This document shows positions 253 to 18,080 of a DNA stretch of 32,000 bases, piece by piece (positions within the stretch are counted from its first letter, which is position 1; the number at the start of each line of letters is the position of its first letter). The position numbers and the translations under genes are program-made. The notes beneath the pieces are model-generated. The model made no database searches. It was not told the origin of the DNA and worked only from the letters and a program-made list of their open reading frames with translations. This stretch comes from an uncultured archaeon (lineage in GTDB: Archaea > Asgardarchaeota > Jordiarchaeia > Jordiarchaeales > Jordiarchaeaceae), in contig CAZECW010000173.1 in assembly GCA_964510585.1 (NCBI GenBank), positions 1 to 32,000 of the forward strand, read 5' to 3'.

Positions 253-780
253 ATGTCCACATTAAAGAGAAGGGTTTTCAAATTTTTAAAATGGATGGCT
301 ATAGTTGCAGGATTAGGTTCAACAGCTTTCGGTCTTCTTCTAGGTTATAATGCCGCCCAATTGCTACAGGTTATTCCAACTTTGAATTACCAATTTGCCC
401 TGTCACCCAGTGCCCCCAAAACTCTATATTACGGTGGATTTGGCTATGATTTCAATTTAGTTGGGTATTACCAAGCAGCATTTCCCAATGGAACAGTAAT
501 TGATAGTAACACGGACTATATACTTTGGCCTTATGAGTTAACTTTACCTTTGAAATCAACTGATCCTATGCGAATTTTATTGGGATTATACGCCAATACC
601 TTCTTCTTAGATGTAAATTTGGTTATACCCTGGGAGGCTGTACAATGGGCAAAAGACAACGGCCAACCCCTATATTTAACTGCAGTCTTTATCATTTGGT
701 TCAATCTTCCCATTGACGGCTTCAACCTAATTATGACGCCGACCACACTATTTTACAGCAGCCCCCAATATGTTCCATGA
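253..780 (+). CDS. Hypothetical membrane-anchored protein (N-terminal TM helix, beta-rich remainder), 175 aa
   Basis: ORF 64..780 trimmed to ATG 253, which follows AGAGGA and an AT-rich promoter-like tract near 199-206. Basic N-terminus followed by hydrophobic WMAIVAGLGSTAFGLLLGY. Confidence 0.8.
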   Translation: MSTLKRRVFKFLKWMAIVAGLGSTAFGLLLGYNAAQLLQVIPTLNYQFALSPSAPKTLYYGGFGYDFNLVGYYQAAFPNGTVIDSNTDYILWPYELTLPLKSTDPMRILLGLYANTFFLDVNLVIPWEAVQWAKDNGQPLYLTAVFIIWFNLPIDGFNLIMTPTTLFYSSPQYVP

Positions 781-798
781 TAAAAGGAGGAATGAACA

Positions 799-1311
799 AT
801 GTCGTTCATTAAAACTATATTAACAAACCCCCTCTACAGCGGAATAGCATATGCAATAGAATATTTTGTATTCTTCTCCATCGTGCCCATAGTAACATTT
901 TCCATCTTAGACACTTATGGCTTCTTCATCCAGCAGAAGGACCCAGTTATGCTAATAATATTTGGAAGTATAATATCGACATTTATCTTCTTTCAGAAAG
1001 CCTTGCGCAGAAGCCACTTCAGATTAAGTGGGGCTTGCGGAATTGTAAGATACTTCGTTTCACTGATTTGGGTTTTCATAATCGCCAACATGGTAAGAGT
1101 TATATGGGTTTATGGCTCCATCTATCAAACCTTATGGGGCTCTACATTGTGGGCTTCTGTCGACTACAGCTTCGTAATCGGACTAGTTTTAATAGTGTTC
1201 GTGATTAGATTCATTAGGTACGGCTACCAGATTATATTCGCCAAGGACCTCAAGGGAGAACCAGGAGTAGAAACATTAGAAGAAGAAATAAGAAGAGAAG
1301 TTGAAGACTAA
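799..1311 (+). CDS. Hypothetical integral membrane protein, about 4 TM helices, 170 aa
   Basis: AAGGAGG SD before ATG 799, four hydrophobic segments, acidic C-terminal tail. It lies 18 nt after the previous gene, so the two are probably co-transcribed. Confidence 0.85.
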   Translation: MSFIKTILTNPLYSGIAYAIEYFVFFSIVPIVTFSILDTYGFFIQQKDPVMLIIFGSIISTFIFFQKALRRSHFRLSGACGIVRYFVSLIWVFIIANMVRVIWVYGSIYQTLWGSTLWASVDYSFVIGLVLIVFVIRFIRYGYQIIFAKDLKGEPGVETLEEEIRREVED

Positions 1312-1345: not shown

Positions 1346-1388
1346 GAATATGTAATGCGATAGGTGTCAGTGGGAAAAGTGGGAATTA

Positions 1389-1402
1389 GTAAACTTTTTA
1401 TA
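1389..1402 (+). promoter_or_regulatory. Candidate BRE/TATA promoter for the AbrB-GTPase gene
   Basis: GTAAAC followed by TTTTTATA, ending about 33 nt upstream of ATG 1435. This spacing fits an archaeal promoter with a short leader. Confidence 0.4.
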
Positions 1403-1434: not shown

Positions 1435-2130
1435 ATGAAACTCCTAGGCGTAGCAAGAATAAGCGACAAGAATCGGATAACCCTCTCAAAAGAAGTAAGA
1501 AACAAGTTGAAAGCGGGCTCCGGAGACCTACTCCTATTCTTTGAAGATGATTCTGGAAACGTTTTAATCTGCACCGAGAACACACTACCCTCGGGCAAAT
1601 CAGATGTAGAAGTCCTCAAACTATTAGTAACAGGCCCCTATAACGCAGGAAAAAGCACCATCGTTTCCAACCTTTCAAGAAAAGCCACAAGCATAGACGC
1701 ATTACAAACAACTGTTGGCTTCGATTTCGGCAGAAAGTACGATGAGATTAATGTTTTTGACCTTCACATCTTTGGAACTCCTGGACATACACGCTTTGCC
1801 TTTATGCAAGAGATTCTAGCCAAGGGGAGCGCTGGGGTTCTTCTTGTGGTAGACAGCACAAATCCTGAAACCTTTAGTTTAGCGCGAGACATCCTATATC
1901 GAGTAAAGAGGGAAATAAGCGAGAACGTACCTGTAGTTATTCTCGCCAACAAGCAAGATCTTGAGGGAGCGATGAAGCCAGAAGATGTAGCCAAACAGCT
2001 GAGCATTGGAATGGACATACCAGTTGTGGGAACCGTGGCGACTCAAAACCAAGGTCTGAGAGAAGCTTTACAATTAATACTAAAACAAATAAGTAAAATG
2101 AGAGGCAAAGAGAGGCCTAATATTAGCTGA
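1435..2130 (+). CDS. AbrB/MazE/SpoVT-type DNA-binding domain fused to an MglA/CvnD-like small GTPase, 231 aa
   Basis: N-terminus VARISDKNRITLSKEVRNKLKAGSGDLLLFFEDDSGNVLI fits the swapped-hairpin AbrB pattern. C-terminus has G1 GPYNAGKS, switch TTVGFDFG, G3-like FGTPGHTRFAFM, G4 NKQD and G5-like TVAT. Confidence 0.88.
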   Translation: MKLLGVARISDKNRITLSKEVRNKLKAGSGDLLLFFEDDSGNVLICTENTLPSGKSDVEVLKLLVTGPYNAGKSTIVSNLSRKATSIDALQTTVGFDFGRKYDEINVFDLHIFGTPGHTRFAFMQEILAKGSAGVLLVVDSTNPETFSLARDILYRVKREISENVPVVILANKQDLEGAMKPEDVAKQLSIGMDIPVVGTVATQNQGLREALQLILKQISKMRGKERPNIS

Positions 2131-2237
2131 ACCTTTTTTCACCCTATGCTTTCCAGATAAATAAGTATGTTGCAATGGGTTCTCTGCACTTGTTTCCCAG
2201 AGTCTGTTTGACTCCGTGTCGGTTTATTTCTTGATTG

Positions 2238-2486
2238 TTATGTTTTTATTGCGGTTTTTTGTATGATAGTTTGGTTAGGTATTTTTTCCTTTTTTGGTTT
2301 CCAAGTCCATACCACTTCTGCTGAAACATCACAGTCTTGGCAAGTGTAGACTGTCTTTGCTACATAGATTGAGCCCCCGTCCGCCTTACTCATCCAAGCG
2401 TCCGTCTTATCCTTTAGGGCCATTGGTGCTCCACAACTTGGGCACCATACACTTTCGAATTGTAGATTTTCACATTTTATTTTCAT
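2238..2486 (-). CDS. Small zinc-ribbon protein (CPSC...CQDC), 82 aa
   Basis: ORF 2238..2579 trimmed to ATG 2486, which overlaps the end of the upstream gene by 17 nt. Two CxxC knuckles. Confidence 0.6.
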   Translation of the reverse strand: MKIKCENLQFESVWCPSCGAPMALKDKTDAWMSKADGGSIYVAKTVYTCQDCDVSAEVVWTWKPKKEKIPNQTIIQKTAIKT

Positions 2487-2859
2487 TTTTCTCATCATCC
2501 TTAAAGTATATGATTTTATAGAGCCAGCCTTTTTTTGGCAAACTGTTGCTTTTCTCGTTAAGCCCACTAAAAACATCATAATGTTTCTTTATCGCCTTCT
2601 GCCACTCCTCCAAAGTATCGAAACCGCTATCCTTAAGGTACCACACAAGATCTTTTTGGGGATTTATTTCTCCTATCTCCTCAACGATGACATTTATCTT
2701 ATTAGGAGTATTATGGAGGAGATTTCCGTTTTTGAATATGCAACCGCTGCCAAACCAGTTTTCTATTCCAGTCCTGCGATTCATCCTAAAGGTATAAACT
2801 ACACCTTTTTTCAACAGGCGTTTCATCGCCTTTTCATCCAGAACCATAACTATTCCCAT
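2470..2859 (-). CDS. Probable ASCH/PUA-like domain protein, 129 aa
   Basis: N-terminal KGVVYTFR (GxKxxTxR-like), C-terminal DSGFDTLEEWQKAIKKHY helix and a final GWLYKI strand are characteristic of the ASCH fold. Recognised by pattern only. Confidence 0.65.
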   Translation of the reverse strand: MGIVMVLDEKAMKRLLKKGVVYTFRMNRRTGIENWFGSGCIFKNGNLLHNTPNKINVIVEEIGEINPQKDLVWYLKDSGFDTLEEWQKAIKKHYDVFSGLNEKSNSLPKKGWLYKIIYFKDDEKNENKM

Positions 2860-3005
2860 AAGTTACAGCCCTCCCACAGGAAGCCATTAAGAGAGAGCGA
2901 AAACTTCTCAAGAGTAAAAACTGGTGTTCCAAAAGAAAGAAGATAAAAGGGAGACCTAATAGTGAGTTTTGATGTTTTGGTGTTTATTTTGATTTTTGAC
3001 TCCAC
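2850..3005 (-). CDS. Possible 51-aa ORF (VESKIKINTKTSK...GCNLWE), not in the supplied ORF track
   Basis: GTG at 3005, open frame to TAG at 2850-2852, overlapping the ASCH start by 10 nt. No recognisable motif. Confidence 0.3.
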   Translation of the reverse strand: MESKIKINTKTSKLTIRSPFYLLSFGTPVFTLEKFSLSLNGFLWEGCNLWE

Positions 3006-3206
3006 CTCTTCTTTTCTATATATATCAATATAGTTCCAATAAATAATATAATATATATTAACTATATAAAAATAATGTTCAAATTAGCAGCCAAAAGGCA
3101 TCTAATTATTACACTTTTTGAAAAACAATTGAAAAGTAGAAGCGACCAAAAATTGTTAATAAGCCAAGCGGAATTTTAAAAATCTTGGAAGCGGCTACTT
3201 TTTTGA

Positions 3207-4241: not shown

Positions 4242-4303
4242 TTTTTTTCATCCGGTGAGGCTTGTTCACTAGGTTTAAATTAATAGTGGTGGGAACTGCT
4301 AAT

Positions 4304-5521
4304 ATGTATTTTCAGGATGTTATACATGGTAAAATTAGGGTTAATGAACTGGAGCAGAAACTTCTAGGCACCAGTGTGATGAAGTCCCTTTCAGGAAAGA
4401 TGGATATAGGTAATATTAACCTAGTTTATCCTGGCGCGAGGCATACACGTCTAGAACATAGCTTAGGAACACTACATGTTGCCAACCGGATTTGCGACAT
4501 ACTATTAAAAAAAGGCTATGAGATTGGGGAGGAGGTGGAGAGTATTAGGCTTTCAGCTCTTCTCCACGATGTGGGTCACGGTCCCTTTTCTCACGGATCA
4601 GAGATTATTCTTCAAGAAAAAACAGGCCTCACACATGAGGAAATGAGTAAGGAAATAGTTATGGACGAAAAATCGGAGATAAATGAGGTGCTCAGAGACT
4701 CAGGATTAAGTAAAAGGTTAATCAGCGAGATAGCGAACAACATTTTGGGAGTGAATAGGAGAAGACCGTTCATAGGAGAAATCATTCATTGGATTGTGGA
4801 CGCAGACAAACTGGACTATCTACCTAGGGACTCCCTCTCCACAGGATTTTTACCTTACCTAGTTCAGAGCTCACACATAATCGATTCTATGAAAATTCTA
4901 GACGAACACATAGTTTTTGAGAAAAGCGTGGTTCCCTACTTGGACTCCATGGTTTTCGCAGAAGCCATTTACTACAAAAATATTCACCACCACCCCACAG
5001 TAAGAAAAGCGGATCAAACCCTATCCAGGGCCATAAAGATCGCGGTTGAAAAGGGGATAACAACAATATTTGAAATCCAAAAAATGACTGACGAACAAAT
5101 AATTTCCTTCCTAAAAAAGGCGGGAGGAACCATTACCCAACTAACATCCAAAATACAGTATAAACCGTTAGACACCATCCTAACTATAAAATGGGAGGAA
5201 CTTGATAAGGATATAGTAAAACAATTATTAGAAGTAGCCAAAGACAAACAGGAAAAAGAAAACATAGAGAAGAGTATAGCTGAACACATAAACAGCGACC
5301 CCAACCTCACTATACTAGACATACCTGAACTCCCAAGCATCCAAGAAGCAAATACACCCATAATGCTCAATGATGAGAAAAAATCTCTCCGAGACATTTC
5401 AAGCATAACCAGAGCAATAAGCGAAAATCAACCCACCCAATGGACCCTACACATTTACTCAGAAAAAGCACCTAAAGAAAGCCTAGATAGCTTTCGAAAA
5501 TTCTTCTTATCACAGATTTAA
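4304..5521 (+). CDS. HD-domain phosphohydrolase, SAMHD1/YdhJ-like dNTPase family, 405 aa
   Basis: Motifs DVIHG, VYPGARHTRLEHSLG, LLHDVGHGPFSH, THE and DADKLDYLPRD. Start trimmed to ATG 4304. Confidence 0.92.
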   Translation: MYFQDVIHGKIRVNELEQKLLGTSVMKSLSGKMDIGNINLVYPGARHTRLEHSLGTLHVANRICDILLKKGYEIGEEVESIRLSALLHDVGHGPFSHGSEIILQEKTGLTHEEMSKEIVMDEKSEINEVLRDSGLSKRLISEIANNILGVNRRRPFIGEIIHWIVDADKLDYLPRDSLSTGFLPYLVQSSHIIDSMKILDEHIVFEKSVVPYLDSMVFAEAIYYKNIHHHPTVRKADQTLSRAIKIAVEKGITTIFEIQKMTDEQIISFLKKAGGTITQLTSKIQYKPLDTILTIKWEELDKDIVKQLLEVAKDKQEKENIEKSIAEHINSDPNLTILDIPELPSIQEANTPIMLNDEKKSLRDISSITRAISENQPTQWTLHIYSEKAPKESLDSFRKFFLSQI

Positions 5522-5915
5522 AAAAACCTACAACAAGAGACAATTAGGAAAACAACCTCTCCCCAAATTTCTGTAAAAGTCGGATTCAGTAAATAATTTT
5601 CCTGTACAATTCCCTTACCAAAAATCGCATACCTAGGATCCCAACACTAATTGGGAATTATCAATATTTCTTTTAAACAGTGTTCTAGGGAATGCTGTTC
5701 GGTGCCAGCCAACCTAATGATGCGAACAGGACTATTATAGCAAATTCGTAAATAATATTAGGAACACAATTGTAGCCTTGCCCACCCGACTAATTTGAAT
5801 CAAGAAAAACTTTGTTTAAGAAAGTTTTAAATTTTTCAAAACGGTAAGAATCATAAGAATGCGACTGAAGGATAATATCACAATAGAGCCAAATCATAAG
5901 GAGAAGTGTAGTACT

Positions 5916-6443
5916 ATGTCTGGAGATTACGATTATCTCTTCAAAATCATAGTAATCGGTGACGGAGCCGTCGGAAAGACAAGTTTGACTGTCCGCTTTT
6001 CGCAGGGATACTTCAAGGAAGATTACAAGATGACCATAGGCGTTGATTTTGCTGTGAAGACGGTTAGTGTTAATACGAATAATGGTCTTAAGACGGCTAA
6101 GTTGCAGATTTGGGATACTGGCGGTCAGGAGAGGTTTTCTTATATTCGTCCATTGTATTATCGTGGCGCTATGGGTGGATTGTTGGTTTATGATGTAACT
6201 AAGCGGGAGTCTTTTGAACATTTGGAGAATTGGTTAGAAGAAGTTGGCAAGCACTGTCCTTCTATCCCTATGGTTATGGTTGGTAACAAAACAGATATGC
6301 CGGGTAGAGCGGTTTCTCTAGAGGAGGCTTTGGAGTACGCAATTAATCATAATATGGTATATTTTGAGACTAGTGCAAAGGAGGGCACCAATGTGGAGGC
6401 CGCATTTGGAGATCTTACTAGAATTCTGATTGATTACACTTAG
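5916..6443 (+). CDS. Rab-like small GTPase (eukaryotic signature protein type), 175 aa, no C-terminal prenylation cysteines
   Basis: DYDYLFKII, GDGAVGKT, TIGVDF, KLQIWDTGGQERF, YYRGA, LVYDVT, GNKTD and ETSAK give all G boxes plus RabF motifs. ATG 5916 follows AGGAG. Confidence 0.95.
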   Translation: MSGDYDYLFKIIVIGDGAVGKTSLTVRFSQGYFKEDYKMTIGVDFAVKTVSVNTNNGLKTAKLQIWDTGGQERFSYIRPLYYRGAMGGLLVYDVTKRESFEHLENWLEEVGKHCPSIPMVMVGNKTDMPGRAVSLEEALEYAINHNMVYFETSAKEGTNVEAAFGDLTRILIDYT

Positions 6444-6526: not shown

Positions 6527-7924
6527 TCAAAAACTGTTTATTTCCATGTTTGGTTCATTTATTACTTTGCCTTTTGGTGTGTATATTGGTGCTTTTGGTA
6601 GTAGGTTGAAGGTATTTCTGAGGGCGAGTTGGTAGGCTCCTACGTCTAGGACTATGAGGATGTCTCCGGGTTGAGTTTTAGGAAGTTTTCGAGGGCCGGT
6701 GTTGTTTTTTGACCAGGCAAAGGTGTCGTTAGAATCACAAGTGATTCCAGCTATGTTGTAGTATTGTGTGGGTTTTTGGGTAGGTTTGGTAGCGTTGACT
6801 ATTTCGAAGTGTTGCGCTATCCAGACCGCGTCGTTGGTGTCCGTTAGAGCGCTTCCATCCGTTATTATCCAGGGGTGTTGTTGAAGTGGTTGACTTATTT
6901 CTGTTGCTTTGATTATTAATATCATGATATTTGCGGTTAGCCATCTCCCTGTTTCGATTATGATTGTGGGAGGGCTGGCTTTGTTTTCTTGGTAGGTTTT
7001 GATTATTTGTTGGGTGGTTTTTTTGGCGTATTCCTCGATGGTGTAGTTGGGATTGAAGGGGTGGTTTTCTGTTTTGTAGTAGTTGACTGCGATTCCTCCG
7101 CCAAGGTTCAGGTTTTCTATGGTTGTTCCTAGTTCCTTTGTCATTTGTGTTGCGTATTGGGATAGTAGTTGTGCGTTTTGGACTAGTTTTTGGAGTTGGG
7201 TTATTTGGGTTCCTATGTGGGATTGTAGGGTTGTTATTTTGATTTTTGAATTTTTGAGGAGTTTGATTGCTTGGGGTAGTTGCTCGGGTGGAATTCCGAA
7301 TCTTGCAGCTCCACTGGGTTTTTCGTAGTTTTGAATGCGGTGGGTTAGGTTTAGGGATATTCCGGCTTCTAGTTCGATATTTTGTTTTTGGCAGAGGTTT
7401 CTCGTGTATTTGATTTCTTCGATAGAGTTGAAGTTTAGGGTTATGTTTCTTTCTCTTTGTAGGCTGATTACCGTCTGTATCAGATTTTTGTTCTGCTTTT
7501 TTGAACTCCAGCTTTTTGAAACTCCGTTACAGATAATGTATGGTACATTTTTTAGTTGTGTTAGGGTGTATTTTAATTCGTAGATGTTTACTACTTCTAT
7601 TCCAAATTTTTGGTCTACTAGGGTCTGGGCTACTTGAGGGAGGTGGTTGGCGGCCAAGGCGTAGCAGGGTTTGAAGGAGGGGTATTTTTTGAAGGCTTCT
7701 TGAAGCCTTTGAGCATTTCTTTTTAATTGGTCCAAACTTAGGACGTAGATGCGGGTTCCCAAGGTTTCTGCTAGCTTTTGAATGCTGACCCCTTCAAAGA
7801 AGATTTGATTATCAGCGAGTTTTAGGGGTTCTGCGAAATCTTTCTTGCCAATGTAATCTTTAGGATGAGGTGTAGACATTTGTGTAAATCTCTCCATGGT
7901 CTCCTCTTTAGGGTTGTGCGACAT
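6527..7924 (-). CDS. Diaminopimelate/ornithine decarboxylase-like (fold-type III PLP) protein lacking the Schiff-base lysine
   Basis: Motifs LAETLGTRIYV, YALAAN (canonical YAxKAN), RFGI, HIGTQI, NLGGG, ETGRWL, GITCDSND and GAY. The start could instead be ATG 7897. Confidence 0.85.
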   Translation of the reverse strand: MSHNPKEETMERFTQMSTPHPKDYIGKKDFAEPLKLADNQIFFEGVSIQKLAETLGTRIYVLSLDQLKRNAQRLQEAFKKYPSFKPCYALAANHLPQVAQTLVDQKFGIEVVNIYELKYTLTQLKNVPYIICNGVSKSWSSKKQNKNLIQTVISLQRERNITLNFNSIEEIKYTRNLCQKQNIELEAGISLNLTHRIQNYEKPSGAARFGIPPEQLPQAIKLLKNSKIKITTLQSHIGTQITQLQKLVQNAQLLSQYATQMTKELGTTIENLNLGGGIAVNYYKTENHPFNPNYTIEEYAKKTTQQIIKTYQENKASPPTIIIETGRWLTANIMILIIKATEISQPLQQHPWIITDGSALTDTNDAVWIAQHFEIVNATKPTQKPTQYYNIAGITCDSNDTFAWSKNNTGPRKLPKTQPGDILIVLDVGAYQLALRNTFNLLPKAPIYTPKGKVINEPNMEINSF

Positions 7925-12446: not shown

Positions 12447-12872
12447 ATGAGCAAACACAAAAATATATACCAATCCGCACAGTTTACAACTATGGACTCA
12501 AAAAAGCGAATCACCCTCCCCGAAAAGGTGTGTGAGATGCTGAACATAAAAGAGGGTGCAAAATTTTTAGTGGTAGCAGATAAATCAAAATCCAAAATTA
12601 TGCTGTACCCCATAATTATGGGAGAAGATAAATTTGCCGAGTTGTATATGAAACTCCGAGATATTCCGGGTGTTCTGGGAAAAGTGGCAACAGAGCTCGG
12701 AAAAATGAACATTAACATCGAATCTAGCATAGTTACACCCAGCGTAGAGAAAATAAGCGATTTTAATGCAATAATTAACTGTAAAAACTGCAAACTATCC
12801 CTGGTGGAAGTAGAGGAAAAACTAAAAAAACTGGAAAACACCATAGAAGTTGAAATAACACCAGTCGAATAA
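12447..12872 (+). CDS. AbrB-type DNA-binding domain plus C-terminal ACT domain regulator, 141 aa
   Basis: TMDSKKRITLPEKVCEMLNIKEG is AbrB-like. LRDIPGVLGKVATELGKMNINI is the ACT signature (DxPGxL...INI). Confidence 0.85.
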   Translation: MSKHKNIYQSAQFTTMDSKKRITLPEKVCEMLNIKEGAKFLVVADKSKSKIMLYPIIMGEDKFAELYMKLRDIPGVLGKVATELGKMNINIESSIVTPSVEKISDFNAIINCKNCKLSLVEVEEKLKKLENTIEVEITPVE

Positions 12873-15699: not shown

Positions 15700-16626
15700 C
15701 TAAATTTTCATTCTTTCCATAACCAGTTTAGCAAGATTTACTTTATCCTCCTTACTCTTCATTATAATATTTGTGCAAAAAACGCTGATACCCAAATCCT
15801 CTATCCTTTTAGTGAAAGCCTGATCACCTGTATCTATAAATATTTCATCTATGATGCCTTGATAAATGGTAGCTACCCCGAAGGGCGACACTTCAACGCC
15901 TATCCCCCTCAACAAGTTTCCTGCCGGTCCACTAACCGGCCCACCACCTATTATGGGACTAACACAAATTCTCTTGACCTTAACCTCCCCCAAGGCTTTC
16001 TTTATCTTGGATACGCCAAGGATTGGCCCTATGCTGGTAACGGGGTTGCTTGGACCGATAACTATTCCCTCAGACTTTTTTATTGATTCCAACACTCCCG
16101 GAGCCGGCTTAGCCTTTTCTATTCCCTCAAAAATAACATCTAAAACCTTATCTTCACCTTTTCTCTTAACCCAGAACTCTTGGAAGTGAAATTTTCCTTT
16201 ATCAGTTTTCACAAAAGTGGTTACTTTATCATTAGACATGGGCAGAATCTTTACCTTTATATCAAAGGCCTTACACAGCGAGTTGGTGACATCGGATAAA
16301 GTGTAACCCTTTTTTAGTAATATGGTTCTGTGTAGGTGTGTTGCTAAGTCTCGATCCCCAATGGAGAACCAGTCTGGGTAACCATATCTTTTCATCATAC
16401 TTAAAAAGTGAAAGGTGTCATCCTTTATTCCCCAAAACCTGTTTTCATCCAGAAGACCAGCTAGAAGGTAGATAGCTGTATCAATGTCGGGGCTAATGTA
16501 TAGTCCCTGCCATTCAAAGTCATCTGCAGTGTTGATTATGAGGGTTACTTCCTCAGGCTTCATGAAATTGAGAAAACCTTGGATAAGCTTTAGGCTGCCA
16601 GTTCCTCCGGACAGTACCGTTATCAT
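15700..16626 (-). CDS. cofD: 2-phospho-L-lactate transferase (LPPG:FO transferase)
   Basis: Motifs LSGGTG, SPDIDT..Y.LAG, WFSIGDRDLATH, HFQEFWV, GPSNPVTSIGPIL and SPIIG..PVSGPA. Confidence 0.95.
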   Translation of the reverse strand: MITVLSGGTGSLKLIQGFLNFMKPEEVTLIINTADDFEWQGLYISPDIDTAIYLLAGLLDENRFWGIKDDTFHFLSMMKRYGYPDWFSIGDRDLATHLHRTILLKKGYTLSDVTNSLCKAFDIKVKILPMSNDKVTTFVKTDKGKFHFQEFWVKRKGEDKVLDVIFEGIEKAKPAPGVLESIKKSEGIVIGPSNPVTSIGPILGVSKIKKALGEVKVKRICVSPIIGGGPVSGPAGNLLRGIGVEVSPFGVATIYQGIIDEIFIDTGDQAFTKRIEDLGISVFCTNIIMKSKEDKVNLAKLVMERMKI

Positions 16627-17645: not shown

Positions 17646-18080
17646 TTACTTTTTGTGCGGAAGTTTACCGTTCACAATTTTGGAAATGATGTTTTTCTGG
17701 GCACGACCTACTGCGCTTGTAAAATCGAATCCCTTTGTGTCTACGCTCAACTCATCAATAATATCTCCATAGGTGCACTCGTTAACAATTTCAATAATCA
17801 ATTCGGTTATGTCATATCTTCTTGATTTGTATCTTACAATAATGGTCTGATTCTCCCAATCCACTTCAGCGCCGTATTCTTGTCTCTGTAAGTTAATCGC
17901 CTCCGCTATGGTAATCCCGGGATTCATCCTCATCACTTCTTGAGGTGAAGGAACGGTTATTCCTTCCCTAGCTAGAAGCGTGTGTTGAACAAACATTGCA
18001 AGAAGCCAACAACGGTTAAATCTCCCCGCCCACACTCGCGGTATTCTGTCTTCATCGTTTTCAGACAAACAACTCACCAT
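17646..18080 (-). CDS. Hypothetical soluble protein, 144 aa
   Basis: Clean ORF with globular-protein composition, preceded by an AT-rich promoter-like region. No motif recognised. Confidence 0.75.
   Translation of the reverse strand: MVSCLSENDEDRIPRVWAGRFNRCWLLAMFVQHTLLAREGITVPSPQEVMRMNPGITIAEAINLQRQEYGAEVDWENQTIIVRYKSRRYDITELIIEIVNECTYGDIIDELSVDTKGFDFTSAVGRAQKNIISKIVNGKLPHKK

Follow-up and report, generated by a model that had tools for sequence, protein, structure and literature searches.

Small GTPases reach transcription through effectors. The GTP-sensing regulator CodY joins a GAF domain to a winged helix, with neither GTP hydrolysis nor a GAP. AbrB folds are obligate dimers. Among archaeal regulators, sites upstream of the BRE may activate and sites downstream of the TATA box may repress. 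No paper was found on a small GTPase carrying its own DNA-binding domain, nor on the combination of an AbrB domain with a GTPase; the automatic IMG label alone names both domains, in keeping with the original prediction that this architecture is, as far as known, uncharacterized.

Bacillus subtilis AbrB recognizes bipartite TGGNA sites whose halves are 4-5 bp apart and may be direct, inverted or everted (PMC3738160). Its DNA-contacting arginines are R15 and R23, and Sso7c4 of Sulfolobus has Gln at the first of these positions (PMC5222340). The criteria that separate MglA groups 2-5 from group 1 and from CvnD of the Streptomyces conservons were taken from Wuichet and Sogaard-Andersen (PMC4316618).

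The gene described here lies in a window of 32,000 nucleotides (the whole stretch of DNA that was analyzed) and encodes an AbrB-fold domain fused to an MglA-family small GTPase (Table 1). AbrB, Abh and SpoVT (AbrB-GAF) of B. subtilis share with the fusion the swapped-hairpin domain with its R15/R23 equivalents, and the candidate sites show the same bipartite TGGNA pattern with a 4-bp spacer as those of AbrB. The candidate regulon comprises 3-4 genes with archaeal BRE/TATA promoters, whereas AbrB of B. subtilis is a global regulator. SpoVT and the fusion both carry a C-terminal partner domain, in the fusion a Ras-superfamily G domain. Sso7c4 is an archaeal AbrB-fold dimer, as the fusion is predicted to be, and is a top structural match, but it is a chromatin protein with Gln where the fusion and AbrB have Arg, and it has no fused domain. 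On the GTPase side, MglA-MglB groups 2-5 and Asgard MglA2-5 have the same Thr-Thr in G2, GTPG in G3, NKxD in G4 and lack of an arginine finger; a 1:2 complex with a roadblock dimer, resembling MglA-MglB, is predicted for the fusion. CvnD also has the GTPG motif and no arginine finger, but differs in its NxFD G4, its DAR G5 and its four-gene operon with a kinase. Tuning of DNA binding by guanine nucleotide within one polypeptide, as in CodY, is what is proposed for the fusion. Both modules are known; the conserved candidate sites are new.

Domain organization of the fusion protein

The ORF is open along its full length. Its N-terminal 50 aa or so, originally predicted to be AbrB-like, were confirmed as such by profile and structure comparisons. 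Residues 8-45 match TIGR01439 (AbrB) with an E of 1.5e-6 and 27.8 bits against a cut-off of 28.3; the orthologue in genome G006 exceeds the cut-off (30.9 bits), and TIGR01439 is matched by 41 of 51 aligned relatives. The match to Pfam PF04014 is weak (E 0.014). A profile built from the 51 relatives matched the structures of Sso7c4, SpoVT, Abh and AbrB; a mixed alignment that included stand-alone AbrB proteins was discarded as misaligned. The AF2 model of residues 1-52 has a pLDDT of 90, and its top Foldseek matches are SpoVT, Sso7c4, AbrB and Abh (probability 0.99-1.0, TM 0.63-0.70, no E below 0.001). R14 and R22, the equivalents of AbrB R15 and R23, are invariant across fused members, and the Pro that usually occupies position 18 is missing. 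The AbrB fold of this domain is close to certain, and the protein is predicted, with high confidence, to bind DNA.

Table 1. Coordinates of the fusion gene, its domains, its promoter elements and its upstream neighbors in the window
Feature	Position	Strand	Evidence
Fusion gene, AbrB-fold domain + MglA-family small GTPase, 231 aa	1435..2130	+	Orthologues 82-100% identical in 6/6 genomes of the genus
AbrB/SpoVT swapped-hairpin domain, residues 1-50	1435..1584	+	Profile, structure-model and Foldseek matches; dN/dS 0.03-0.16
Flexible linker, residues 51-58	1585..1608	+	pLDDT <50 at 53-56; dN/dS mostly 0.15-0.4
G domain, residues 59-225	1609..2109	+	G1-G5 motifs; dN/dS 0.02-0.06
Candidate operator (pair of TGGGA half-sites separated by 4 bp), immediately 5' of BRE/TATA	1371..1384	+	Conservation
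BRE/TATA-like promoter element of fusion gene, 17 bp	1386..1402	+	Invariant in 10 aligned loci
Upstream membrane-protein gene, conserved neighbor in genus	799..1311	+	Neighborhood comparison
Membrane/secreted-protein gene further upstream, in every case paired with the 799..1311 gene	253..780	+	Neighborhood comparison

AbrB folds are joined to ligand-sensing domains elsewhere. The window itself holds a second AbrB fusion at 12447-12872 (+), an AbrB-ACT protein of 141 aa with an apparent orthologue in genomes G006 and G007; no TGGGA site was found in its promoter.

The linker is loose, and the predicted structure of the fusion has no confident inter-domain contact. The complete GTPase with GTPG in G3 that had been predicted to follow the linker was found, its motifs being G1 at 67-74, G2 at T92-T93, G3 GTPGH at 114-118, G4 NKQD at 172-175 and G5 TVA at 200-202. 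The G domain matches Myxococcus xanthus MglA in structure (Z 20.9, rmsd 2.4, 170 residues aligned), tied with Rab3C and Arf6. T92-T93 is invariant and places Thr where an arginine finger would be. All fused members have His at the catalytic Gln position, giving GTPGH in place of the GTPGQ of groups 2-5; since the sister paralogue and most relatives carry Gln, the His is a derived variant, and it probably slows hydrolysis. Judged by its motifs, the GTPase is of MglA group 2-5 type, archaeal and with a canonical NKxD in G4. As regards archaeal groups 4 and 5, NKQD is present and the quick tree was built without named references of either group. The MglA half of the predicted MglA/CvnD assignment was thereby retained and the CvnD half abandoned on the mismatches at G4 and G5. 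Identity with CvnD (MglA group 2) was rejected for want of NxFD in G4, of DAR in G5 and of a conservon operon, and the Myxococcus type (MglA group 1) for want of TVPGQ in G3 and of an intrinsic arginine finger.

Distribution and origin

Homologues carry the names Freyarchaeota, Jordarchaeum and Ca. Freyarchaeum deiterrae, and the host is an Asgard archaeon of the Jordarchaeaceae. When the architecture was searched for, as had been suggested, the fusion was shared by the whole genus (6 of 6 genomes) and so is not peculiar to one assembly. It was not found in five sister-family genomes (73-95% complete), nor outside the genus among 400 Asgard genomes. An all-length profile search, which covers this AbrB subtype, found a single cluster matching both parts among 1.84 billion protein representatives; in the Atlas (small clusters being outside its scope) relatives are only unfused or KaiC-fused. 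The fusion is restricted to one genus and is no ancestral trait of eukaryotes.

An unfused paralogue of about 60% identity, with Gln in G3 and no adjoining roadblock, is present as well in all members of the genus, near an ESCRT-I/II cluster (Vps23, Vps28 and EAP30; loci L024 [G000:C4:280-4757] and L008). The quick tree groups the fused clade, this Gln paralogue and two unfused His-bearing proteins with a support of 95. One of the His-bearing proteins sits in a ParA-V4R-roadblock operon and the other adjoins two roadblocks. The latter protein has its accession series in common with fused proteins of the Ca. Freyrarchaeum guaymaensis cluster, so this species appears to have both a fused and an unfused His protein. 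An origin of the His together with the fusion was rejected because of these unfused relatives: the His predates the fusion, and neither it nor the loss of roadblock linkage came with the fusion.

The fused AbrB domain corresponds to an entire stand-alone Asgard AbrB protein of 53-60 aa, tail included, so that the fusion most likely joined a stand-alone AbrB gene to a duplicated GTPase gene. Those stand-alone genes that most resemble the fused domain are located in mobile or defense-like regions of another Asgard family (L048, L050-L052, L054); no GTPase was found alongside them, and no TGGGA site pair.

Substitution rates indicate that the AbrB and G domains are both under purifying selection, with higher dN/dS in the linker (Table 1; dS about 0.4-1.8 for the AbrB part).

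A further GTPase paralogue, which ends in a winged-helix-like domain (supported by weak Pfam hits) and has Leu or Met at the G3 Gln position, occurs in both Jordarchaeia families (L033:1501-2214, L034, L036, L039, L018-L021, L028); it was not found in this assembly. It suggests that, within Jordarchaeia, possible DNA-binding domains were acquired by this GTPase family on more than one occasion.

Candidate DNA sites

Both half-sites of the candidate operator are intact in five of seven diverged lineages, with drifting flanks; the first half is degenerate in G006, and Ca. Freyrarchaeum guaymaensis has lost the site. Orthologous promoters of the fusion, of one roadblock gene and of a TPR gene keep TGGGA half-sites at a distance of 9 bp, whatever their orientation, and so, in one species, does the promoter of a sister GTPase. 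At locus L080 the 14-mer of the operator was found reversed before the unfused His paralogue, together with inverted and everted half-sites, and two alleles of that promoter differ by exactly one 9-bp unit. A similar site is present in the roadblock promoter of the same locus and in the orthologous C202 roadblock promoter of this genome, at about 15740-15780 of G000:C202, as well as in G006, G008, G009 and G010. The promoters of the other roadblock paralogues do not have it, and the strict pair was not found at roadblock homologues of the sister family, which lacks the fusion. Inverted pairs in sister-family genomes G004 and G005 were discounted because they lie inside coding sequence.

An array of three half-sites lies between the TATA box and the start of a TPR gene in every genome of the genus with that gene; in this genome the TPR promoter is at about 7560-7610 of G000:C118. 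The three-half-site pattern matched five stretches in 185,579 genomes, four of them the Jordarchaeia TPR promoter, and three further metagenome matches are that same promoter. The gene (L124:1091-2056, - strand) encodes a genus-specific 321-aa protein with a SNAP-like Pfam hit; it has the best-conserved array and is a candidate effector. Because fusion, site and TPR gene are all genus-specific, their co-occurrence is partly kinship.

Strict pairs of the TGGGA motif, which was found after the fact, are present in 9 of the genome's 2479 promoter-like regions, and these nine include those of the fusion gene, the TPR gene and the roadblock region. Direct, inverted and everted orders all occur among the candidate sites. 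Single TGGGA sites and the 12-mer core showed no clear enrichment in intergenic DNA, so a global regulon is not present. A sigma-70 promoter scan was set aside as irrelevant for an archaeon.

About 20 further AbrB-fold genes occur in the genome, and the promoters of some of them contain similar half-sites. At least two half-sites were found in the own promoter of five of nine AbrB genes with Arg at the R14-type position, against 0 of 12 others (background 3.2%). In G006 and G007 together the same threshold gave 3/13 against 1/22 (p 0.13); with at least one site, a threshold chosen afterwards, the counts were 8/13 against 3/22 (p 0.007). This pattern supports an AbrB-type binder, with the other AbrB proteins as remaining candidates. 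Since a roadblock gene and the fusion gene itself would be among the targets, the fusion is the most economical candidate binder, and it probably binds these arrays.

Promoters of other Arg-class antitoxins show related repeats, which hints at a recognition code. In an RNA run of a near relative, an RNA-library contig spans 1415-1979, across the AbrB/GTPase junction, which is weak evidence given possible DNA carry-over; the promoter gap of the fusion gene had no read cover in that one run, which is uninformative either way.

Roadblock partner

As predicted, no roadblock is encoded in the window: 16 roadblock genes were found in the genome, all on contigs other than that of the fusion. When the G domain was modeled together with a pair of C202 roadblock chains, the score was 0.92, and the best control reached 0.03; one of the 16 roadblocks was modeled, and the score does not single it out. 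The score mark was reached by 58 of 80 solved pairs and by 2 of 110 mismatched pairs. Runs agreed in at least 94% of contacts with a partner pLDDT of at least 93, and the predicted interface consists of switch I, beta2 and switch II. Since the predicted complex resembles solved MglA-MglB, passing the mark shows likeness only. Identity with the unfused sister proteins is 68-84% at the interface positions and 54-57% over the remaining G domain, switch regions being conserved in GTPases anyway. By this model the G domain may keep a roadblock-type interface, although the score may reflect likeness to MglA-MglB.

Proposed mechanism

The AbrB domains would pair as a swapped dimer, as is usual for the fold, with two G domains attached through loose linkers. 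One dimer would read one half-site, and stable binding to arrays phased at 9 bp would need dimers to join. The G domain may supply a nucleotide-dependent dimer-dimer contact, either directly or through a roadblock dimer that docks on switch I, beta2 and switch II; a comparable place is held by the C-terminal domains in AbrB and SpoVT. At its own gene and at one roadblock gene the protein would bind upstream of the TATA box, in an activator-like position, and at the TPR gene between the TATA box and the start codon, in a repressor-like position; a sister GTPase would be a further target in one species. The outcome would be feedback on the amounts of GTPase and roadblock.

The one-component transcription factor of the original prediction is supported, indirectly, by the intact DNA-binding arginines, the purifying selection and the conserved AbrB-type candidate sites. 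A roadblock-coupled, nucleotide-modulated one-component regulator with feedback on its own module, its binding and switching both predicted, stands at an even chance. Its strictest form, in which the nucleotide state set by the roadblock partner switches cooperative occupancy of the arrays, with control of its own and the roadblock gene, is more tentative and somewhat less probable. If true, a Ras-superfamily GTPase would itself be a sequence-specific transcription factor, with control over the genes for itself and for its roadblock partner. Asgard archaea have many MglA/roadblock switches, and a protein of 231 aa with named candidate sites and a candidate partner makes a direct DNA readout of a Ras-like switch testable.

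It is unlikely that the fusion binds the sites with a G domain that has no switching role, serving as a constitutive oligomerization module or leaving the DNA to anchor GTPase signaling to roadblock and TPR partners. The loose linker with no confident inter-domain contact would suit such a protein, the G3 His may keep it mostly GTP-bound, and all of the DNA-site evidence fits equally well; yet free GTPases show no stronger constraint on G1, G2, G4 and the switch surface than the fusion does, and AbrB is joined to ligand-sensing domains elsewhere, as in the AbrB-ACT protein. Of similarly low probability is ownership of the arrays by some other regulator, whether an antitoxin of AbrB type or an unrelated factor, with the fused AbrB domain only dimerizing the GTPase or tethering it non-specifically to the nucleoid in the manner of Sso7c4, which is among the best structural and sequence matches. 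One candidate owner is a genus-wide AbrB antitoxin on contig C105, in whose own promoter two inverted copies of this half-site flank the TATA box (L126, L229-L234; G000:C105 about 17960-17990), a pair also seen in a sister-family genome. Its spacer is 13 bp, however, the site is degenerate in G006 and G007, and in G009 the gene is interrupted by stops although the arrays there are intact. The winged-helix GTPase paralogue is another, but it occurs in the sister family, whose roadblock promoters lack the strict pair, and no pair was found in its own promoter. It also counts against another owner that the targets all belong to one GTPase module.

The original prediction had offered, as a second possibility, that AbrB-driven dimerization activates the GTPase in place of the roadblock GAP. 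The obligate dimerization of AbrB folds and the lack of a roadblock on the fusion contig would fit, but this is now very improbable: the unfused sister paralogue equally has no adjoining roadblock, 16 roadblocks are available in trans, the closest His-bearing relatives, in which the His arose before the fusion, sit beside roadblocks, and a roadblock gene carries the same candidate DNA site as the fusion gene. The predicted roadblock-type interface, better conserved than the rest of the domain, likewise makes replacement of the roadblock unlikely. A neutral accident or assembly artefact, to which the restriction to one genus might point, is scarcely credible, given six genomes with many independent contigs, an RNA-library contig bridging the junction and, largely refuting it, the low dN/dS of the AbrB part at its dS values. 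The feedback regulator coupled to a roadblock is the reading preferred here.

Neighboring genes

The two upstream genes (253-1311, +) are unannotated and conserved in several Asgard families; in the sister family they adjoin a TIP49-like gene. A GTPase gene often adjoins the pair, but its role as obligate partners of the fusion was not supported, because in other families that GTPase is OapA, MglA-type or Rab-like, or there is none. In relatives an oapA-oapB-oapC (arvABC) operon is divergent from the pair (L001:2912-4315, L005, L006), a position that falls left of the end of the window's contig.

Downstream, about 1 kb of lower GC (36%) at 2140-3200 holds a zinc-ribbon gene and an unannotated 129-aa gene; it is present in the three closest genomes and absent from more distant ones, and is perhaps a mobile-element remnant. 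The HD-domain gene at 4262-5521 (+) is intact, whereas gene calls in several relatives split it into two ORFs (L001-L003, L006). A Rab-like small GTPase is encoded 3.7 kb downstream, at 5859-6443 (+), and lies near the fusion in relatives too.
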